A stretch of DNA of 61,117 bases from an uncultured Methanosarcinales archaeon (GTDB taxonomy: Archaea > Nanobdellota > Nanobdellia > Woesearchaeales > GW2011-AR4), in contig CAYNCK010000088.1 in the NCBI GenBank assembly GCA_964396095.1, forward strand, positions 1 through 61,117. Direction: 5' to 3'. A program made the position numbers and the translations under genes. Each line of letters opens with the position of its first letter. The stretch's first letter is position 1. Shown here piece after piece: positions 3,546 to 58,618 of this stretch. The notes under the pieces are model-generated. The model was not told the origin of the DNA. It worked only from the letters and a program-made list of their open reading frames with translations, and did no database searches.

Positions 3546-3678
3546 GGGCCCGTAGTCTAGCCGTTACCACGCAAAACTTCGTTTTGCTGAGTTTGCGTGG
3601 CCGCAAATGACGTCACCCTTACAATCCTTAAAATGATTTGAAAGGTGAAGGTCACCAGTTCAAATCTGGTCGGGCCCA
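3546..3678 (+). tRNA. tRNA-Val(TAC) with two introns: D-loop intron 3566-3606 (41 nt) and canonical 37/38 intron 3624-3642 (19 nt)
   Basis: Acceptor GGGCCCG/CGGGCCC+A, anticodon stem TCACC/GGTGA with TAC, T arm ACCAG-TTCAAAT-CTGGT. Removing the two insertions at relaxed bulge-helix-bulge sites restores a cloverleaf. Confidence 0.85.
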
Positions 3679-3760
3679 TTATACATTATCCGTGCAATCG
3701 AAGATTGCACTTGTTCCCGCACTCAACTGACGGAACAGTTGAGCAGGTCGGGCCCATTAT
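3668..3760 (+). repeat. Hairpin mini-element copy 1, flanked by a 15-bp direct repeat of the tRNA-Val 3' end (3668-3682, 3746-3760)
   Basis: GGTCGGGCCCATTAT twice, 78 bp apart. Between them lie hairpins GTGCAATC-GAA-GATTGCAC (3692-3710) and CTCAACTG-ACGGAA-CAGTTGAG (3722-3743). Confidence 0.85.
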
Positions 3761-3966
3761 TTTAAAACCATATTAAATACTCAAGATAAAAAAATTTGGC
3801 GACCAATGAAAAAGCACTCAGTACTATAATAGGTAACCTGCATCGTGATTGATTATTGAATAAATTGGCGAGGCTGAGAGTGTGTCCAAACAGCGAAGCC
3901 TAGCACAAAATATTGTCGCGAAGCGACGGATTAAAAAATTTCAAATAGAATATAAATTTCATTTTT

Positions 3967-4038
3967 GCGCGAGTGATCTAGTGGCTATGATTGGGCCTTG
4001 CCAAGGCTCCCACCCGGGTTCGAATCCCGGCTCGCGCA
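3967..4038 (+). tRNA. tRNA-Gly(GCC), intronless
   Basis: GCGCGAG/CTCGCGC+A acceptor, GGGCC-TTGCCAA-GGCTC anticodon arm, CCGGG-TTCGAAT-CCCGG T arm. Confidence 0.95.
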
Positions 4039-4099
4039 TATCCTTCTTGGTTAGATGCGCCATGCAACATTTATAAGGGATTTAAAAAGGTGAGGCAGC

Positions 4100-18141: not shown

Positions 18142-19470
18142 TTAGCACAGATTTGCGGATAACATCCTGGTTAATTCTTTCTTAATATTCAATTTCTGCA
18201 ATTGCCATGTGGCAATAAGAGAAGCAAGAGTTTCATATGTTTTAGTTCCTTCGACGGAGCGGAATGCTCCGATAATTTTGCGAACCAAAACCGTTTCACG
18301 AATTGATTGTTCAGCATAATTATTGGTGGGCTGAACCCCTGCAATTTTAATGCAGGTGAACCAACTTTCAATATGAAAGTCTATGTATTTTGTGACTCTT
18401 TCAGATTCTTCATAGCGTGAATAATATTGAATAATTTTCTGTAGCTTCTTTGTCATTTGTGTATACTTGCGGAGCCTCTGTTTCTCACTTTTCTCTATCC
18501 TGTTAAATTTGATGATTTCATCAAACAGTACAGAGAGTTTTTTATGGAAATGCCTTCCGGAAACACTCTCAAGATATTTCGATTTACGAAGCAAATGCGC
18601 CCAACAGCGTTGCAATGTAGCTTTACTCAGGAAATCATACGCACGCCAGCAGTCGCAGACAACTATGCCTGCATAATTTTTCCCAAGTATCTCTTCAAGC
18701 ACATTATTTCCTCTATTGTTCCGTATGACTAGCAACATATCAGTATCTGATCTAAACACCCACACCCACCAATTTTTTCCAAGAACGCTGAAACTGGTTT
18801 CGTCGATGTAAAGCAATGATGCAGTTCTAATCTTCTGCTTAAGTAAAACATATTCTTTTTCTCCTGCTTGAGCTGCTCTTTCTATAATTGCCTGCACGCT
18901 GGCAGGCGCAAGCTTTAGTGCAAAGCTTGCTTCCAGAAAACTGGTTGTTTTTCTCAAGACACCTCTTACAATAAATTTCAGAAAAATAATCAGCACCATC
19001 AAATTTATACCGAATCTGCCTTGAAGGGGTGTTTGGTTATCTCTTGCTAAAAATTTCAGATGACATTTATTGCATTTGCAAATGTCACGGGTAATATTCA
19101 CTGCTTCTGGTTGAATATCGGGTGGTATTTCTTCCTGCTGTTGAAGCTTCTTGCCAATCACTTCAAAACTTTTGCTTTGACACCCGGGGCATTCTGTTCC
19201 AAATATATAACGCACATTTTGGGTTTCTTTTTTTGGCTTGTTTATTCCTTTATGGTCAAATGGCGCACCTCTCTTATGTGGTTTAACATCTACAGTTTTT
19301 GAATAAGCGGGTTTTAAATGAGGGTTGGCAGAAGGCGGAGTATTGGGGTTCTTGTACTTTCGAAGCTCTTTCTCAAGAGCTTCTTTTTCTTTTTTGACTC
19401 TGTTTAATTCTTTTTCCATCTCTAGAAACTTTTTTATGATTTCATCTTTTGAGAGAGTTGAGAGTATCAT
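18142..19470 (-). CDS. IS66 DDE transposase
   Basis: Coiled coil, NTPPS, Zn finger CPGC..CKCNKC, IDET, VCDCWRAY, QRCWAHLLR, PTNNYAEQSIR. Confidence 0.95.
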   Translation of the reverse strand: MILSTLSKDEIIKKFLEMEKELNRVKKEKEALEKELRKYKNPNTPPSANPHLKPAYSKTVDVKPHKRGAPFDHKGINKPKKETQNVRYIFGTECPGCQSKSFEVIGKKLQQQEEIPPDIQPEAVNITRDICKCNKCHLKFLARDNQTPLQGRFGINLMVLIIFLKFIVRGVLRKTTSFLEASFALKLAPASVQAIIERAAQAGEKEYVLLKQKIRTASLLYIDETSFSVLGKNWWVWVFRSDTDMLLVIRNNRGNNVLEEILGKNYAGIVVCDCWRAYDFLSKATLQRCWAHLLRKSKYLESVSGRHFHKKLSVLFDEIIKFNRIEKSEKQRLRKYTQMTKKLQKIIQYYSRYEESERVTKYIDFHIESWFTCIKIAGVQPTNNYAEQSIRETVLVRKIIGAFRSVEGTKTYETLASLIATWQLQKLNIKKELTRMLSANLC

Positions 19471-32420: not shown

Positions 32421-33494
32421 TTAAATCTTCTCAACAATTAATTTCCCTTTCTCAATCTTCAGTACAACTTCATCCTTTTCCCCGAACTGCGCAATGCCTG
32501 TCACAATCTTTGGCAGTAAAATCCTGCCGCCCCTGAAATCAAGATTTGTTATTATCTGCTGGGCAATCTCGCCGCTCATTCCAAGATCCTCAAAAATCTT
32601 TGTGGTAGCCTCGTCTCTGTCCCTTGCGGAAAATATCTCAGATTTTTCAAACAAATATTTTGCAATTTTGTCTGCTATGTTGATGCTTGTTGCCTTGGTA
32701 ATTCCCTGTAATCCGGGGCTTAAATTTGCTTCAATCACTACGGGCCCTTTTGGGCCTTCAAGAATATCAACAGCGCAAATTTCTGCACCAATTGATTCGG
32801 CGGTATCAACTGCAATTCTTTTTGTGTTCTGGTCAAGCACACACGCTTCTCCCGTTCCCCCCGCATGTATGTTAGCCCGCATCTCCCCCCTGACTGCTTT
32901 TCTTTTCATGGACGCAACAACCCTATCGCCAATGACAAAAGCCCGTATGTCGACTCCTCCTGTTTCAATGTACTCCTGAATCAAAAATGGCTGCTTTAAT
33001 GCAAACAATGCGTCGAGCATTGAAGAAGCTGCTGCGTAGCTTTCTGCAAACATAACTCCCTTTCCCTGCGTTCCATGCGGAAATTTTAGGACAATAGGAT
33101 AATTGACTACATTCAAAACTTTCTTTGCAGCCCTTGCAGATGATGCAAGGTATGTTGTAGGCATCGGAATGTTGAAATGCTGCAATGCAAGTTGCGTAAG
33201 CAATTTATCATGCCCCAGTGTAAAAGTTTCCGGCTTTATCGGCATGTAGGAATTCCGGTATAATGTCCGTGTCACGCTCCTCAGCAAAGGAGCATACCTA
33301 AAAGAGCCTCTTGCATAAATGCAGCTATAGCGCGGCATTGCGTTGCCTTCATAAAGTACATTTAATTTTCCAGCACCAAGGTTGACTTCAACATCTCTCA
33401 AGTCAATGTTGTCAACACTGTCGAAATAGCTCTCCATAGCTTCAATTATCATCATTGAGCTTTTGCTTCCGAGGGACATTACAGCTGCTTTCAT
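32421..33494 (-). CDS. RimK-family ATP-grasp ligase with C-terminal AbrB-like domain
   Basis: DKLLT.L.L....IPMP.T, LKFPHGTQGKGV, IQEYI...GVDIRAFV, RANIHAGG, IEANLSPG; tail DFRGGRILLPK...GEKDEVVLKIEKGKLIVEK. Confidence 0.85.
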   Translation of the reverse strand: MKAAVMSLGSKSSMMIIEAMESYFDSVDNIDLRDVEVNLGAGKLNVLYEGNAMPRYSCIYARGSFRYAPLLRSVTRTLYRNSYMPIKPETFTLGHDKLLTQLALQHFNIPMPTTYLASSARAAKKVLNVVNYPIVLKFPHGTQGKGVMFAESYAAASSMLDALFALKQPFLIQEYIETGGVDIRAFVIGDRVVASMKRKAVRGEMRANIHAGGTGEACVLDQNTKRIAVDTAESIGAEICAVDILEGPKGPVVIEANLSPGLQGITKATSINIADKIAKYLFEKSEIFSARDRDEATTKIFEDLGMSGEIAQQIITNLDFRGGRILLPKIVTGIAQFGEKDEVVLKIEKGKLIVEKI

Positions 33495-33554
33495 TCAGCT
33501 GTTCTGCCAGTTGAGTGCGGAGTCAAGTACGATTTTTGAAGCTCAATCGTACGG
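33495..33554 (-). repeat. Hairpin mini-element copy 3, abutting the rimK-like start codon
   Basis: Minus strand CC-GTACGATT-(10 nt)-AATCGTAC-TTGACTCCGCACTCAAC-TGGCAGAACAGCTGA-ATG aligns to copies 1 and 2. Confidence 0.75.
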
Positions 33555-33614
33555 AAAGTAAACGCACTACCGACTTTTTTTTGTTTTTTCATTTTAGTTA
33601 ATTAGAATTAACCA

Positions 33615-42577: not shown

Positions 42578-44269
42578 TCAAACCCCTTCAAACAGTTTCG
42601 CAACTTTTTCTTTTCCAAGCGCTAGTATAAAAGGCGCAAGCTTTGGCCCTCTTTCTTTATTTAGTAAAACTTTGTAAGCTGCCTTGAACAAATCATTTGG
42701 CTCAATTTTTAATTCATCCTTGGCAATCCTGTAAAATTCGTTGAACAAAGTTTTCTCATCCCATTTTTCTTTCCTTAATTTTTCAGCAAGCAGATGGAGC
42801 GCTTTCTTCTGATGCTGGTTCAGCTCAATATTTTCAGGAATCTTGTGCTGGAATATGAATTTATACTGCTCATCGGCAAATTCTTTGACCCATCTCTTTG
42901 CGAATGCAAGCCTTTCCCCAACATAAACAATTTCTTCTTTTACAGCGTCTTCAGCAAGCTGGCCGGTTTCCCTCAGGGAATTCATAATCAGTTTTTCATC
43001 ATCAAAAATCTGCACTAAGATTGAAGCCTGTGAAAGGCTGACCTGAGGTGGAATTCTTTTAGGGATTTTTCCGACATGGCTTAATTCATAAATTCTTCTT
43101 TGCCTTGAATTTTCTTTTTCTCCAAGGTCATCTTTTCCAAAATAAACCCTTTCAGCCTGGTCGTATCTTTCATAAAGCAAAATCAAATCATTTGTGTAAG
43201 GGTCAAAATCAATTGCGGCATTTGGCCTTGTCCTTATGAGCATGAACCTCAGCATCTTTGCAGGCGCATAATTTACAGAATCTGCAAATCCAAGCCCCTG
43301 TCCTTTGGAAGTTGACATTTTCTTGCCGCCAACATTAAAAAATTCATATCCCGGGCCTGTTTCATAGCCGTTTGAAGGATAAGGCGGTGGGTAGTCAAAA
43401 ACATCAACTGCTATTCTGCATGCTGCAGTGCGTGATCCTCCTCTTGTGAAATGGTCTTTCCCAGCTGTTTCAACTATAACGCTATTTGTCGGCCATTTTG
43501 CAGCCCATTCGACTTTCCATGGAAATTTTCCATTGCCATCATAGGGGAAAATCCATCCTTTATGGCCGCACCCTTTTGCCCATTTCACAACATCGTTTCT
43601 GCATTCAAAAAATATTTTTTCATTTTTGCCGTCCCATTCAGTCGCAAGGGTTGTGGAAATTTTTTTGCAATGCGGGCAAAGGATATTGAAAGGAAGCTTG
43701 CTTGCCGCAGCGACATCATCACCGTACAAATCCCTGTAAATTTTTTGAATTCTGTCTGCGTAATCCAATGCAATTTTTATTGTCCTGTTGAAAGAGCCTT
43801 TTTCATATTCATGGCCTGTGCTTTCAAGGTGCGCTTCAATCCCAAAATCAGGAAATAATTCCGTGCATTGCGAAAAATAATAATCCCCAAAGCTTTTGTA
43901 GCCTTTTACAGGGCTTGGAATATACCTAAAGGGAACTCCGATGTATTTTTCGTTTTCTTTTTCAGTTAATTCTTTAGAAGGCTTGTCCAATGGATCCATG
44001 TCATCGCTGCTCAGGATGAATTTTGCTTTTACTCCTTTGTCGCGAAGGGCTTTCACAATTGCATCATGTATTACCCATCCCCTGCCTGAGCCTATATGTA
44101 TTGTTCCTGAAGGGGTTTTCTCGTCCATGACAATATAGCCGTGCTTTTTGACAAGGCTTTTCAGCAGCTCATTTCCCTCAACCCTTTTGATTGCCTCATC
44201 AGCAACCTGGTCTGCCCAAAATGAATCTTCGAAACTTTTACCGATAGGGCTTTTTTTATCCATAAACAC
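42578..44269 (-). CDS. lysK: Lysyl-tRNA synthetase class I
   Basis: WAD, TPSG.IHIGS, SDDMDPL, KFPWKVEWAAKW, GKDH, KMSTSKG, RGPKLAPFI. Confidence 0.95.
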   Translation of the reverse strand: MFMDKKSPIGKSFEDSFWADQVADEAIKRVEGNELLKSLVKKHGYIVMDEKTPSGTIHIGSGRGWVIHDAIVKALRDKGVKAKFILSSDDMDPLDKPSKELTEKENEKYIGVPFRYIPSPVKGYKSFGDYYFSQCTELFPDFGIEAHLESTGHEYEKGSFNRTIKIALDYADRIQKIYRDLYGDDVAAASKLPFNILCPHCKKISTTLATEWDGKNEKIFFECRNDVVKWAKGCGHKGWIFPYDGNGKFPWKVEWAAKWPTNSVIVETAGKDHFTRGGSRTAACRIAVDVFDYPPPYPSNGYETGPGYEFFNVGGKKMSTSKGQGLGFADSVNYAPAKMLRFMLIRTRPNAAIDFDPYTNDLILLYERYDQAERVYFGKDDLGEKENSRQRRIYELSHVGKIPKRIPPQVSLSQASILVQIFDDEKLIMNSLRETGQLAEDAVKEEIVYVGERLAFAKRWVKEFADEQYKFIFQHKIPENIELNQHQKKALHLLAEKLRKEKWDEKTLFNEFYRIAKDELKIEPNDLFKAAYKVLLNKERGPKLAPFILALGKEKVAKLFEGV

Positions 44270-44314: not shown

Positions 44315-45814
44315 TTATCTCAATTCTGCTTTTGTAAACGGAAATAATATGACTTCCTTGATTGATTTTTGGTCTGTCAGAATCATTGTAAGCCTGTCAA
44401 TTCCGATTCCAAGTCCTCCTGTGGGGGGCATGCCGTATTCTAAAGCCCTTAGGAAATTTTCATCCAGCCTCAGATGCGGATTATTTTGGCCTTCTCTTCT
44501 GATTTGCTCTTCAAAAAGCTTTCTCTGTAGAATTGGATCGTTCAGTTCTGTGTAAGCATTTCCAATTTCCATTCCGGCAATGTAAGGCTCAAATCTTTCT
44601 GCGAGTCCGGGTTTTTCCCTGTGCGGCTTGCATAACGGGGTTGACTCAATTGGGTGGTCTGTGATAAATACTGGACCATCCAAATGCGGTTCGACATAAG
44701 TTCCAAATAATCCAAGAACAATTTCGCCTTTAGACATATCCCTATAATCACCAATTTTTTCTTCTGATCTGGCAGCAAGATGAGTTTTTAATTCCAGCTG
44801 GTTCATCTTCTCAACATCTGTTCCGGTATATTGTTTTACAGCATCATACATTGTTAATCTTTGCCAGGGCGTCCTCAATTCAATTTCTTTCCCTTGGTAA
44901 TTTATTTTGGTTTTTCCAGTAATAATTATGGCAATTGCGGATATCATTTCTTCTGTCAGTTCCATAACTTTATGGTAGTCGCAATTTGACATGTAAGCTT
45001 CCATCATCGTGAATTCAGGATTGTGGGTGCTGTCAATCCCTTCATTCCTGAAATTCTTGCCAATAGTATAAACTCCCTGAAATCCGCCTACAATCAGTTT
45101 TTTAAGGTAAAGTTCAGGAGAAATTGAAAGGAAATGTTCCTGGTTTAGGGAATTAACATGTGTTATAAATGGAGCCGCTGATGCACCGCCGTAAATAGGC
45201 TGAAGAGTTGGAATTTCGACTTCCATATATCCTTTGCCATCCAAAAATTTTCTCATTTGAGAAATTATTTTTGACCTTTTCATGAAAATTTCAGCAACTT
45301 CGGGGTTTGCAATCAAGTCAAGGAATCTTTGTGAATATCTTATTTCTGGATCAACTAATCCGTGGTGCTTATCGGGCAGCGGCCTTAGTGATTTTGAAAG
45401 CATCGCGAAATCGCGGACATTCATTGAAAACTCGCCTGCTCTTGTATTGAAAGTTGTTCCTTCCGCACCCATAAAATCTCCAATATCAAAAAAATCCTTA
45501 AGAAGAGAATACACATCTTCTCCTAATTGCCTTTGGTTCAAATAAAGTTGTATGGTTTGCCCCCCTTCCCGTAAATCAAGAAATGTAGTTTTTCCATGCC
45601 CCCTCCATGCAACTATCCTTCCGGCAATCTTTGCTTCCAGTCCAATTTGGCTTTTACCAATCAATTCCGGAATTCTGTCTTTAGCATCGTAAAAATGCGG
45701 ATACGGGTCTATGCCCATTCGTCTCAATTCTTCAAGTTTTCGCAGTCTTACTGGGTCAATTCCTGCGTTTGAATCCGTATTTTGCACTCTGTTCTCGAGA
45801 ACTTCGTCTGACAT
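44315..45814 (-). CDS. lysS: Lysyl-tRNA synthetase class II
   Basis: OB fold (AGRI..RGHGK..FLDL), YSQRFLDL, GGASAAPF, SPELYLK, FRNEGID.THNPEFT, GNAYTELNDP, MPPTGGLGIGIDRL. Confidence 0.96.
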   Translation of the reverse strand: MSDEVLENRVQNTDSNAGIDPVRLRKLEELRRMGIDPYPHFYDAKDRIPELIGKSQIGLEAKIAGRIVAWRGHGKTTFLDLREGGQTIQLYLNQRQLGEDVYSLLKDFFDIGDFMGAEGTTFNTRAGEFSMNVRDFAMLSKSLRPLPDKHHGLVDPEIRYSQRFLDLIANPEVAEIFMKRSKIISQMRKFLDGKGYMEVEIPTLQPIYGGASAAPFITHVNSLNQEHFLSISPELYLKKLIVGGFQGVYTIGKNFRNEGIDSTHNPEFTMMEAYMSNCDYHKVMELTEEMISAIAIIITGKTKINYQGKEIELRTPWQRLTMYDAVKQYTGTDVEKMNQLELKTHLAARSEEKIGDYRDMSKGEIVLGLFGTYVEPHLDGPVFITDHPIESTPLCKPHREKPGLAERFEPYIAGMEIGNAYTELNDPILQRKLFEEQIRREGQNNPHLRLDENFLRALEYGMPPTGGLGIGIDRLTMILTDQKSIKEVILFPFTKAELR

Positions 45815-48251: not shown

Positions 48252-49616
48252 ATGCCAGAATCATATTTAAAACCAGGATTGGTTGTCCTCGGAATTGGAA
48301 CTGTTGGTGGATCAGTATTGTACCAGCTTATCCACGACAATAAACTTTCTAGTTTTGAAAGCGTTGATGTCGGAGACTCAAGACATATACTCCATGGGTT
48401 AACTACCGAGAGGGATTTAAATTCTATTCTTGAAGCAAAGGCATGTCATCAGCATCTTGATACAATTGATTCTTTAAGAGGGCGCCTGGACAGCATAAAA
48501 AATCTTCCTAAATATTTTAAACGAAATGGCATTGTAATCAATGCGTTGCCGACTTATTTTCCGAATCCCGGTGATTTGCAAGAGCAGGAGCATGACAGCA
48601 TTGTATATGTTAAGCAGGCTCTATTGGGCGGAGCACATGTCATTAATGCAACCAAATCACAATTTGGAGACCAAGAAAAGCACGATGGCATTATGGATGC
48701 CGCATTTTTAGGAGGGGCTCGCCATTACCCGACTGGAGCATTTATGGGCCCTGCTAAAGTTGCGGAATTGCTGCAAGAGATTATCGGCAGTGGTTCAAAA
48801 ATTAAAAGTGCGGTTGGTGTTGTAAACGGAACTACAAATTTCATGCTAACTGAAATGATATATAATGGCCTGGATTATAATTCTGCTTTGGATATGGCCC
48901 GTTCATTGGGACTTGCCGACGGTGATGGTAAAGCCGATACACATGGCCATGACCCCCTCAGCAAGATTAGGGTTCCTGCAATTCTTTCTAGAAACTATGT
49001 TTCAAGTCCTCAAGAATTATATGGATTAAATGACGAAAGTAAAAGCGGATTAACTCATCCACATTTCGAATTGTTACAAGGAGAAAAAATATTAGGTATT
49101 GAAGGAGTCACAAATAGCCTTTTAGAAGCATTAGGGAAAATGTCCAAGACACTAAAACTAGTTGGCTCGTATAATGGTCAAACAGGCCATGTTGAGGTTG
49201 GGCCAAGAGTATTGTCTCTTGATCATCCTCTCGCTAATTTGAAAGGTACTGAAAATATGGCAATTTTTAATTTGGAGGGAAGAATAGATATGTTGGGTAT
49301 ATTGATGTCAGTTTTTCCAGAACCCACAATTGAAAAATTGAACGGAGATGGCATAGAAAGATACAGGATTGAAAATGGTTTTCATATGCCAGGAAATAAT
49401 TCACACTCAAAAAGAGATAGATATACAATTCATCTTAGCTACGACCCAAAAGAAAACGTGTTTACTGTAAGGGCACCGGGAGCTGGAAATGGCCACACAG
49501 CACACGCATTATTGGAAACTGCCGAGGGAATCGGAAGGAATGAATATGCAATAATTCGTCAAGCACGACAAGCTGCAAAAGAATCACGAAAAAATCCTCA
49601 AGACGCTATGCCGTAA
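48252..49616 (+). CDS. Divergent homoserine dehydrogenase-like protein
   Basis: LGIGTVGG Rossmann motif, GVVNGTTNFMLTEM, A..LGLAD...ADTHGHDPLSK, GAG. Confidence 0.7.
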   Translation: MPESYLKPGLVVLGIGTVGGSVLYQLIHDNKLSSFESVDVGDSRHILHGLTTERDLNSILEAKACHQHLDTIDSLRGRLDSIKNLPKYFKRNGIVINALPTYFPNPGDLQEQEHDSIVYVKQALLGGAHVINATKSQFGDQEKHDGIMDAAFLGGARHYPTGAFMGPAKVAELLQEIIGSGSKIKSAVGVVNGTTNFMLTEMIYNGLDYNSALDMARSLGLADGDGKADTHGHDPLSKIRVPAILSRNYVSSPQELYGLNDESKSGLTHPHFELLQGEKILGIEGVTNSLLEALGKMSKTLKLVGSYNGQTGHVEVGPRVLSLDHPLANLKGTENMAIFNLEGRIDMLGILMSVFPEPTIEKLNGDGIERYRIENGFHMPGNNSHSKRDRYTIHLSYDPKENVFTVRAPGAGNGHTAHALLETAEGIGRNEYAIIRQARQAAKESRKNPQDAMP

Positions 49617-57234: not shown

Positions 57235-58362
57235 TTATTTTTTTGTATTATGATCTAACATTTCTCTTTTTGGAAGAAGCGACATTAAGTCTCTTCTTAC
57301 ATTTCTTGCAGTGATTTCAAGGCCTGCGCCGGGTGATTGAATAATATAGGGCGCATCGGCGGAATAAGTTTCAGAAGTAATTATAATTTTGTTCATAGTT
57401 CCTCTTAGTCTGCCAAGTTCGCTGTCCGACTGCACTTCCTTCAGGCTTACCTCGATTTTTGGCTTCTGGCTTCCAATGTCTATTGAAGCAACATACCTTA
57501 ATGTTTTTCCGCTTCTTTTTGCGGAAATCATCTTATTCGCAAATAATTTGTCCAGCTGCTTTGAAGCCTGCATAAAACTTTCTGCAGTTTCATTGTTAAA
57601 ATAGTCTAGAGGTATAAAAGGATTCACAACTGCATCTTTCATGCTCACATTAAAGCCAGCAGACCTTGCAAGCACAATAAGTTTTCTTGAAACATCCAAT
57701 CCATTCAAGTCATCTCTTGGATCCGGCTCAGTATATCCCTTTTGAAGCGCTTCCTGCAAAATTTCAGAAAACATTCTCCCATTTTCCAGCTCAGAAGTTA
57801 TATACCCTAGTGTCCCTGAAAAGCAACCTTCTATGTGGCGCAGATTGTCATTTAAATCCCCCAAATCCTGCAGAAAGGGTATTGCATCAGAGCCGGCCAT
57901 TACAGAGCATCTGTAGCCATATCTTCTTGGATTTTTGGTCAGGGTTTGAAATACATCATAAGGGGAGAAAGCTATCGGATTTTTGTTTGCAGTAACTATG
58001 CCATAAGGGGTGTCGTTGATGACTTTAAGATGCAACTGCATCATAGGCTCGTTGGCAGCAGTAACATCCACAAAGACAAGCGAGCTCGCTTCTTTTTCAG
58101 TTCCGATTTTGGCAATATCAATGAGTTTTTTCGGATTTGGGTAAAGTTCTGCGCCATTATAATCTCTTACAATAAAATTATGCATTTGGCTATTTTCCAA
58201 ACCATTTGCTGAATAAACAAAGTATTGGCTGGAGGCAAGCCCGACAATTCTTGTGGGGTTTGCATGAAGCTGGGAATTCATGTCCCTCTTTTCAACAATC
58301 TGCCTAACCAGAGAACGGCCCACTTTTCCAGTTGCCCCTATTATGAATATATCCTGAATCAT
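57235..58362 (-). CDS. hom: Homoserine dehydrogenase (ThrA/MetL-type domain, stand-alone)
   Basis: IIGATGKVG, FVDVTA, VTANK, IEGCFSGTLGYI, GYTEPDPRDDLNGLDV.RKL, PGAG; start taken as ATG 58362. Confidence 0.85.
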   Translation of the reverse strand: MIQDIFIIGATGKVGRSLVRQIVEKRDMNSQLHANPTRIVGLASSQYFVYSANGLENSQMHNFIVRDYNGAELYPNPKKLIDIAKIGTEKEASSLVFVDVTAANEPMMQLHLKVINDTPYGIVTANKNPIAFSPYDVFQTLTKNPRRYGYRCSVMAGSDAIPFLQDLGDLNDNLRHIEGCFSGTLGYITSELENGRMFSEILQEALQKGYTEPDPRDDLNGLDVSRKLIVLARSAGFNVSMKDAVVNPFIPLDYFNNETAESFMQASKQLDKLFANKMISAKRSGKTLRYVASIDIGSQKPKIEVSLKEVQSDSELGRLRGTMNKIIITSETYSADAPYIIQSPGAGLEITARNVRRDLMSLLPKREMLDHNTKK

Positions 58363-58370
58363 TGAAAGTG

Positions 58371-58534
58371 AATAAAATGTGCCCAATGTGATTTCCACCA
58401 ACTGTTCCGTCATGTCGGAAATCAGAGATTTCCGAGCACCATCGAAAATGCCAAGCATTTATCGAGGGTTGAGTGCGGAAACAAGTGCAATCTACCGATT
58501 GCACGGATAAATATAATGGGCCCAACGGGATTTC
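58371..58534 (-). repeat. Hairpin mini-element copy 2 (with 55-nt nested insert), flanked by a degenerate 25-bp repeat of the tRNA-Lys 3' end
   Basis: GAAATCCCGTTGGGCCCATTATATT (58534-58510) vs GAAATCACATTGGGCACATTTTATT (58395-58371), 21/25 identical; core matches copy 1. Confidence 0.8.
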
Positions 58535-58618
58535 AACCCGCGACCCCCTGATTTCTTCATAATTAAGAGTCAGGTGCTCTAATTGCCCCAAAAAGTGTGC
58601 AGGCTGAGCTATGGGCCC
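58517..58618 (-). tRNA. tRNA-Lys(CTT) with two introns: D-loop intron 58598-58583 (16 nt) and 37/38 intron 58563-58553 (11 nt)
   Basis: GGGCCCA/TGGGCCC+A acceptor, GCTC/GAGC D stem, CCTGA-CTCTTA..A-TCAGG anticodon arm, GCGGG-TTGAAAT-CCCGT T arm; TATA ~25-30 bp upstream. Confidence 0.85.

Follow-up and report, generated by a model that had tools for sequence, protein, structure and literature searches.

A small modular element with a conserved core behind tRNA genes of Woesearchaeota, and the case for its mobility

Introduction

Among the closest described counterparts of the sequence family reported here are integrative elements that target tRNA genes, such as those of the SSV and pNOB8 types. 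We studied this family, which we call element E, starting from a stretch of 61,117 nucleotides (nt) of archaeal DNA (contig CAYNCK010000088.1 of assembly GCA_964396095.1, positions 1 to 61,117, forward strand), referred to below as the window. Like the tRNA-targeting integrative elements, E is accompanied by a direct repeat of a tRNA 3' end, leaves the tRNA intact, occurs in tandem arrays and has empty sites. However, its insert measures just 56-112 nt, is non-coding, comes with no integrase that we found and has some copies away from tRNAs. Moreover, one and the same module occurs at many tRNAs, each time with that tRNA's own repeat, and the T-loop within the repeat is specifically mutated.

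A further group of comparable sequences comprises miniature inverted-repeat transposable elements (MITEs), REP/BIME-type and BOX-type repeats and derivatives of IS200/IS605. E shares with them that it is short, non-coding, hairpin-forming, intergenic and co-transcribed, and it recalls MITE, REP and BOX sequences in its nested modular hairpins, in a second mosaic element ('F') found alongside it and in a strand-specific fold that tolerates G·T/G·U pairs. Because E lacks inverted termini and a short target duplication of fixed length, we rejected a classification as a MITE. It differs from this group also in its long duplication of the tRNA 3' end, in having a near-invariant 25-nt core instead of a conserved palindrome, and in its low copy number. 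One trait of REP/BIME or IS200/IS605 sequences, a strand-specific hairpin kept by compensatory change, is seen in the first hairpin of E. However, no Y1 (RAYT/TnpA) transposase was seen near the copies, and the tRNA-linked copies have long repeats, which are not made by REP or IS200/IS605 insertion next to a fixed tetra- or pentanucleotide. One Nanobdellota genome does carry a REP-associated tyrosine transposase, according to a preprint.

Casposons, which employ Cas1, also insert at tRNA 3' ends, with a target duplication of 14-15 bp; they resemble E in this target and in the 15-bp repeat at tRNA-Val(TAC). We rejected this assignment too, since E has no inverted termini and no Cas1, and since 15 bp applies to Val-TAC only, with 21-29 nt elsewhere. 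To our knowledge, casposons are not known in DPANN archaea. Finally, mobile bulge-helix-bulge tRNA introns and the leaders and trailers of disrupted tRNAs are small, structured, tRNA-linked inserts of archaea with many introns, and E has strings in common with local introns. The 'transposition' of tRNA introns was reportedly described in Thermoproteales by Fujishima et al. in 2010. In contrast to such introns, E lies outside the mature tRNA and has no evident bulge-helix-bulge motif, and its second tRNA copy cannot be an exon.

As argued below, E most likely behaves as a miniature mobile insertion with a preference for the 3' ends of tRNA genes. It belongs with the small insertion elements that do not code for protein and with the integration footprints known from tRNA genes, but has itself not been described in Rfam or in the papers searched. 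Two of its traits are unusual: a single invariant 3' core is combined with interchangeable hairpin modules, and the duplicated tRNA end is altered specifically in its T-loop.

Results

A family with a covarying hairpin

The window contains exactly three copies of E, each made up of an 8-bp covarying hairpin (hairpin 1), a 6-nt linker and a near-invariant 25-nt core. The copies had been proposed in an earlier interpretation made without database searches (the sequence-only reading), and re-reading the window sequence confirmed their positions. Copy 1 (3686..3741, + strand) is the short 'type A' form, with the lead TTATCC, hairpin 1 at 3692-3710 (GTGCAATC-GAA-GATTGCAC), the linker at 3711-3716 and the core CCGCACTCAACTGACGGAACAGTTG at 3717-3741. 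Copy 2 (58399..58510, - strand) is a long form with exact core halves: hairpin 1 occupies 58504-58485, the first part of the core 58478-58468 and the second part 58412-58399, and between these parts lies a 55-nt insert with two hairpins (58467-58413). The sequence-only reading had listed these 55 nt, but had not placed them within the core. Copy 3 (33496..33558, - strand), again of type A, has hairpin 1 at 33552-33527 (GTACGATT...AATCGTAC) and a core with three substitutions at 33520-33496. Copies 1 and 2 match the string TGACGGAACAGTTG exactly and copy 3 departs from it by 3 substitutions, while the 11-mer CCGCACTCAAC is observed 3 times in the window against 0.24 expected by chance.

A covariance model (R1), built from 13 members of the family, recovered only these three copies when scanned over the 61 kb, with 85.1 bits for copy 1 (E-value 2.5e-19), 66.5 bits for copy 3 (9.1e-15) and 50.7 bits for copy 2 (7e-11). 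The next match in the window had an E-value of 0.18, i.e., there were no weaker relatives of E. RNA folding of the three regions compared with shuffled sequences gave z = -3.7 for copy 1 (-27.5 kcal/mol), and -3.6 and -2.3 for the other two.

Hairpin 1 is maintained by covariation. Between copy 1 (GTGCAATC/GATTGCAC) and copy 3 (GTACGATT/AATCGTAC), three positions per arm are changed and all are compensated, exactly as had been noted earlier. Across 13 distinct members, double-sided compensatory change affects 4 of the 8 pairs and 99% of cells are paired; none of 500 shuffles reaches the observed covariation, and no slid register comes near it. The variants GTGCCATC/GATGGTAC and GTGCAATC/GATTGTAC form G·U pairs on the E strand, which on the opposite strand would be A·C, so that the fold belongs to the strand that is sense to the neighbouring tRNA or gene. 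The description of E as 'all-hairpin' was, however, overstated. The core hairpin CAACTG-ACGGAA-CAGTTG and the alternative helix TTCCG/CGGAA show no covariation, only uncompensated mismatches, and the core is therefore conserved as sequence. It is near-invariant across genomes whose orthologous proteins are only ~55-60% identical. E is under both sequence and structure constraint on the transcribed strand; to this extent the alternative offered by the sequence-only reading, a conserved structured RNA tail, is partly right.

Two ideas about the core were abandoned. An H-type pseudoknot between its two helices would leave no nucleotides for loop 3. A coding function was rejected because the tRNA-linked copies have no start codon, the copy in locus L126 (loci beyond the window carry L numbers) is in another frame, and the core is not conserved as a peptide.

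Scans of a genome collection and of metagenomes located at least 27 further E loci, nearly all labelled Woesearchaeota or Nanoarchaeia. The named loci are metagenome-assembled genomes of Candidatus Woesearchaeota or 'Nanoarchaeia', mostly from groundwater. The count is a lower bound: among the 117 stretches listed by a genome-wide pattern scan with ACTTGNNNCCGCACTCAAC, 8 were real and most were chance bacterial matches. One E locus carries the label Methanosarcinales, which is probably a binning error. The gene content of the window is Woesearchaeota-like (purine, lysine and threonine biosynthesis), and its homoserine dehydrogenase matches proteins labelled Woesearchaeota. These further loci, together with the compensatory changes in hairpin 1, establish a genuine multi-copy family with a covarying stem. 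The sequence-only reading had not recognised a named family, and indeed none matched E in a scan with Rfam 15 at gathering score (window and 20 loci; on two windows up to an E-value of 10); likewise, no description of E was found in literature searches or in Rfam.

Modular forms of the element

The short form of E is 56 nt long and consists of the lead (T)TATCC, the 8-bp hairpin GTGCNATN-loop-NATNGCAC, the linker TTGNNN and the core. The long form, seen in copy 2 of the window and in L028, has the 55-nt, two-hairpin insert exactly between CTCAAC and TGACGG of the core. In a third form, type B (L122, L125, L128, L135, L140, L145 and L146), an additional 10-bp hairpin and TTTTTGATG stand between hairpin 1 and the core. 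In the GC-rich forms L130 and L142, unrelated hairpins abut the same core. The longer forms reach ~110-170 nt, with extra nested hairpin units.

The 55-nt insert (58413-58467, - strand) is a separate module. It also occurs at L028:5645-5695, in the enlarged type-B copies of L122 and L125, and inside element F of L149 (19055-19110, reverse complement). Its hairpins covary (CGGAAATC/GATTTCCG, CGAAAATC/GATTTTCG, TCAAAAATC/GATTTTTGA), and the apex AATC-NNN-GATT is common to them and to hairpin 1. We considered whether the insert is a bulge-helix-bulge intron, but inspection revealed no such pairing.

Copies behind tRNA genes

E was found behind at least six species of tRNA, in all cases on the strand of the tRNA and a few bases past the discriminator. 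These are tRNA-Val(TAC) (copy 1 of the window, L101/L131 and L146), tRNA-Val(CAC) (L049 and L107/L136), tRNA-Thr(GGT) (L017 and L123), tRNA-Lys(CTT) (copy 2 of the window, L132, L113 and L119/L133), a tRNA in L091/L134 that we read by eye as Ile-GAT, and a further one in L138. Every E that follows a tRNA is itself followed by a second copy, in the same sense, of the 3' part of that same tRNA. Beyond the window, such repeats of 12-29 nt were seen at 11 loci. In L017 and L133, E and its repeat form tandem arrays of two units (E-repeat-E-repeat). In addition, the L119 contig breaks off within an E-plus-repeat unit (L119:1-82). The near-identical L133 has this unit in tandem, and the assembly of L119 was therefore probably interrupted by the array.

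In the window, copy 1 is bracketed by two copies of GGTCGGGCCCATTAT, at 3668..3682 and 3746..3760 (both + strand), which agree at 15/15 positions with a spacing of 78, as the sequence-only reading had stated. The first comprises the last 2 nt of the T-stem, the 3' strand of the acceptor, the discriminator and TTAT; a T-rich stretch follows the second. For copy 2, the spacing is 139, as given earlier, and the degenerate second copy GTGGAAATCACATTGGGCACATTTTATT (58371..58398, - strand) is identical to 58537-58510 at 23/28 ungapped positions, where the earlier figure was 21/25. It spans the T-loop, the 3' strands of T-stem and acceptor, and the trailer of tRNA-Lys.

Both tRNA genes escape standard finders: ARAGORN and Rfam at gathering score call only tRNA-Gly(GCC) (3966-4039) in the window. 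The intron-rich tRNA-Val(TAC) (3546..3678, + strand), upstream of copy 1, ends at discriminator A3678. Its acceptor (GGGCCCG/CGGGCCC), T-arm (ACCAG-TTCAAAT-CTGGT) and anticodon loop (CTTACA) can be read from the sequence; it has a partial Rfam tRNA match of 17.3 bits and is missed by ARAGORN. We likewise read tRNA-Lys(CTT) (58517..58618, - strand), upstream of copy 2, from the sequence, with a sub-threshold Rfam tRNA match of 20 bits. Each of the two genes has two non-canonical introns, located in the D-loop region and in the anticodon loop. Their orthologues on other contigs are called by ARAGORN, and the order of tRNA-Lys and homoserine dehydrogenase recurs in L147 and L148. The genes before copies 1 and 2 are thus true tRNAs, as the sequence-only reading had taken them to be, that are disrupted by introns.

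Further introns were noticed in the course of this work. In the tRNA-Lys of L148 (L148:1255-1325), a 39-nt intron separates the T-loop from the 3' strand of the T-stem, and the inside of this intron is partly T-arm-like. The D-loop intron at L091:3700-3730 contains CAATCGCAGATTG, which is identical to hairpin 1 of L123, L126 and L132. The D-loop intron of the window's tRNA-Lys (58585-58600) has GCACACTTTTTG, the string at which hairpin 1 meets the linker in type-B copies (L122, ~985-1000).

Copies away from tRNA genes

The claim that E targets tRNA 3' ends holds for the tRNA-linked copies with their own 3' duplicate, but not for all copies. Copy 3 of the window is not at a tRNA. It ends one base upstream of the ATG (33494) of RimK, an ATP-grasp gene, a RimB-like protease ORF (open reading frame; 33971-33615) lies on its other side, with Pfam matches identifying the neighbouring genes, and its flanking repeat is at most 7 nt (AATGAAA). 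Orthologues of this copy, in L127 and L028, also lie directly upstream of the RimK ATG, so that three genomes share this arrangement. Elsewhere, E abuts the ATG of another gene (L126) or follows an ispH-like gene (L089), type-B copies lie antisense in the spacer between rpoA'' and rpoA' (L128, L140 and L145), and E is near tRNAs in other orientations in L130 and L142. A tRNA 3' end is therefore a preference rather than a rule.

Several details of the non-tRNA sites deserve mention. Next to RimK, a short ORF of 33, 31 or 56 codons (window 33491-33592, - strand; L127; L028) begins before copy 3 or its orthologue and reads through E in frame. Its stop codon, TGA or TAA, overlaps the RimK start codon (ATGA or TAATG), which suggests translational coupling of the short ORF into RimK. 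Two of these short peptides end in Glu. In L151 (18101-18241), a 46-codon ORF has the same ATGA overlap without E. For this reason we downgraded the candidate AATGAAA/ATGAAA as a target duplication outside tRNAs, which may simply be two Met-Lys start codons. In L145 (7949-11989), the gene for RNA polymerase A'' (385 aa) precedes that for A' (896 aa), opposite to the order usual in archaea, with a spacer of 192 nt.

Filled and empty sites

The sequence-only reading had proposed a search for alleles without E, and such alleles exist in three settings. At tRNA-Thr(GGT), the filled L123 and the empty L101 differ by a clean indel of 83 nt in flanks that are ~95% identical. The 83-nt block of L123 is composed of TTTTTTCTATCC, E and GTGTATATCCCATCAGAGGCT, in this order; past the second tRNA copy, the original trailer resumes. 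From tRNA-Lys to homoserine dehydrogenase, the arrangement is conserved in L147 and L148 without E. Finally, the RimB-RimK spacer is free of E in L148 (19 nt), L149, L151 and L153. Seven related contigs, 113 kb in total, yielded no E; one of these belongs to an assembly with E at another place. This pattern of presence and absence indicates that E and its repeat come and go together. L113 and L133, which are closely related, differ at 1 of 59 positions in E and at 2-3 of 21 in the second tRNA copy, and they have one and two units, respectively. E is thus constrained, and the second tRNA copy is not.

Discussion

A proposed mobile module with a target-derived duplication

Our proposal is that E is a mobile, structured insertion module with a target-derived duplication, non-autonomous and restricted to Woesearchaeota and related DPANN archaea; we give it about an even chance of being correct. 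E would be copied by recombination into the 3' end of a tRNA gene, in a reaction catalysed in trans. It would then be carried as a structured trailer in the tRNA transcript and freed by RNase Z cleavage or, at RimK, be carried as an intercistronic RNA. The invariant core may be the sequence that is read by the mobilising or RNA-binding machinery. The second piece of tRNA would be a non-functional footprint of insertion rather than a working part; we hold this view because substitutions accumulate faster there than in E between close relatives.

A number of observations weigh against this proposal. No mobilising gene adjoins any copy that we examined, and the search of the window gave only an unrelated IS66 transposase. 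More broadly, no integrase, transposase or reverse transcriptase was found near the copies, among 40 ORFs of the window and 10 ORFs beside the tandem arrays. Searches of viral contigs, phage genomes and plasmids for E gave no relevant match. E has no terminal inverted repeats, and its ends (TTATCC.../...CAGTTG) are unrelated. The repeats at tRNAs have no fixed length: they span 12-15 nt at Val-TAC but 21-29 nt in other places. As for the 'empty' sites, precise deletion between direct repeats would explain them equally well. A resident functional RNA would also match the invariant core and the fixed position of the RimK-linked copy in three genomes.

The most specific difficulty concerns the T-loop of the second tRNA copy. 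The 13-14 nt comprising the 3' strand of the T-stem, the 3' strand of the acceptor and the discriminator hardly ever deviate from the local tRNA and share even its lineage-specific substitutions. However, each second copy that reaches into the T-loop has 2-3 changes over its seven positions. Changes affect 20 of 70 T-loop positions and 5 of 130 positions in the rest (Fisher p = 1e-6; p = 9e-5 after orthologous loci are collapsed). Some are recurrent, namely C56 to T (in 6/6 loops of the TTC type), A58 to T or C and A57 to G, and the result is often TTTATAT-like. At the same time, the second copy in L123 retains the unusual G55 of its tRNA and therefore derives from the local tRNA rather than from a foreign attP. 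Duplication by staggered cuts and fill-in predicts identity, not such T-loop changes. Neutral decay predicts uniform change, and an attP arm predicts a sequence specific to the element rather than to the tRNA. Candidate causes are a selective disadvantage of T-loops in the trailer, selection in favour of a TATA-like box, and copying from a base-modified tRNA.

Other explanations

In the first of the two alternatives offered by the sequence-only reading, E was a non-autonomous element integrated by a tyrosine integrase. If the enzyme acts in trans, the tRNA 3' ends would be attL and attR and the second copy a segment brought in by attP. This would account for the tRNA 3'-end repeats that bracket the insert with the original trailer past the second copy, and for the empty sites. 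Tandem arrays that share repeats, as in L017 and L133, are expected from repeated integration, and the second copy diverges only on its 5' (T-loop) side, which looks like the border of a block of attP/attB identity. The region from the T-loop to the 3' end of tRNA genes is a classical integrase target, as reportedly set out by Williams in 2002 (Nucleic Acids Res 30:866). We nevertheless consider this explanation unlikely. It fits poorly with a single 56-nt module that is found behind so many kinds of tRNA, in each case with the 3' end of the local one, since an element that brings its attP along would have to possess a different, matching site for each tRNA. The local origin of the second copy in L123 and the mutated T-loops point the same way. 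Furthermore, the excised circle would have only ~80 bp, no integrase was found in the window or beside the examined copies, E has no matches in viral, phage and plasmid collections, and the copies away from tRNAs are without convincing att repeats. We are similarly doubtful of the opposite idea, that E is an immobile, resident RNA that acts in cis or as a small RNA, for instance as a tRNA trailer that binds a protein or as an intercistronic element, its repeats being local tandem duplications and its absences losses. In its favour, the core stays the same even between deep lineages and hairpin 1 covaries, the orientation is consistently that of transcription, and the position before the RimK ATG is kept. 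The low density of copies (~1 per 20-60 kb) also suits a resident RNA, as do the antisense position of E between rpoA'' and rpoA' and its solitary occurrence, combined with other hairpin sequences, in L130 and L142. However, independent duplications of the same architecture at six tRNA species require a common generating mechanism, and a clean indel in near-identical flanks, tandem copy numbers that differ between close relatives and the lack of E at syntenic sites in most related genomes are all hard to reconcile with immobility. The three core substitutions in copy 3 also speak against it.

Two further explanations involve the tRNA itself. The trailer freed by RNase Z, which would be E RNA, might be reverse-transcribed together with part of a modified (pre-)tRNA and the cDNA recombined at the tRNA locus, in which case the T-loop changes would be misincorporations opposite modified bases. 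E begins directly past the discriminator, its 3' end is conserved while its 5' parts vary, and its fold is specific to one strand (G·U), all of which would follow. The changes that recur at A58 (to T/C) and at A57 (to G) fall on positions that bear m1A58 and m1I57 in archaeal tRNAs. DPANN archaea are hosts of reverse transcriptases, in diversity-generating retroelements. Nonetheless, this route is very unlikely: C56 to T, which is equally recurrent, is not known as a reverse-transcriptase signature of Cm56, the second copies have the trailer of the gene and no CCA, no reverse transcriptase was found nearby, and several loci are orthologous, leaving few independent events. It also counts against this route that we know of no target-primed retroposition of the kind in archaea. 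The least probable explanation, to which we attach hardly any weight, is that E and the second tRNA piece form a bulge-helix-bulge intron or a split or alternative tRNA exon, or that E is a C/D-box guide RNA. The host genomes are rich in non-canonical tRNA introns, the hairpins of these introns share strings of 11-13 nt with E, and type-B copies contain UGAUGA ... CUGA. However, C56 and A58 are missing from the T-loops of second copies (such as TTTATAT or TTTGATT) and mutations affect some of their acceptor strands (GGGTCCA, GGGCACA), which disqualifies these copies as exons; in addition, the two tRNA copies are identical rather than complementary, with no bulge-helix-bulge helix evident on inspection. 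We rejected a C/D-box small RNA or K-turn because the common type-A copies have TTGTTT, TTGACT or TTGAAT instead of box C, so that the idea holds only for type B, and Rfam gave no C/D match.

A mobile module with a target-derived duplication thus remains the explanation that we prefer. E may also be an ordinary hitch-hiking repeat. A more radical version of the reverse-transcription route would be a new form of archaeal mobility, in which trailer RNA is copied back at tRNA 3' ends along with part of a modified tRNA and the A58 and A57 changes are reverse-transcription scars of m1A58 and m1I57; this we regard as a slim prospect. Equally new, if true, would be a core that is the handle of an RNA-guided or RNA-binding machine specific to Woesearchaeota.

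Neighbouring genes and element F

A second conserved intergenic mosaic, element F, has the form GGCGARGCYGAG ... GGCAAACAGCGAGGCTGAGCAC ... GTYGC-NNN-GCRAC-GGATTRAA. It occurs in the window (3866-3935, + strand), at L149:19040-19180 and at L153:20060-20120, and, reverse-complemented, just 5' of E in L128, L140 and L145. F lies ~40 nt upstream of where a gene or tRNA starts and immediately ahead of the AT-rich promoter region: it precedes tRNA-Gly in the window, RimK in L149 and L153, and rpoA' in L128 and L145.

The longest ORF for homoserine dehydrogenase (57235-58458, - strand) starts within copy 2 (ATG at 58458), and the database protein of 407 aa keeps this extension; the true start is likely the ATG at 58362 (MIQDIFIIGATGKVG...). 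A second gene with a homoserine-dehydrogenase domain lies at 48252-49616. A class I lysyl-tRNA synthetase (42578-44269, - strand; PF01921) adjoins a class II synthetase of the Asp/Lys/Asn type (44315-45814, - strand; PF00152). The IS66-family DDE transposase of 442 aa (18142-19470, - strand) is the sole recognisable mobile-element gene among the scanned ORFs of the window.

Implications

DPANN archaea have tiny genomes and are for the most part uncultured, and very little is known of their mobile DNA and small RNAs. The E family supplies a marker that can be searched for, in the form of the 25-nt core and the covariance model. Even should E prove to be an ordinary repeat, the family is of value for annotation, as tRNAs that precede E escape standard tRNA finders and gene callers run the homoserine dehydrogenase ORF through E. 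The filled, empty and tandem alleles at tRNA genes are a clean natural experiment. The footprint that they display, an exact tRNA 3' strand beside a specifically mutated T-loop, is odd but reproducible and is not predicted by any of the insertion mechanisms that we compared. Explaining it could reveal how sequences enter tRNA genes in organisms that are rich in disrupted tRNAs, and could also show whether tRNA trailers serve as vehicles for small structured RNAs.

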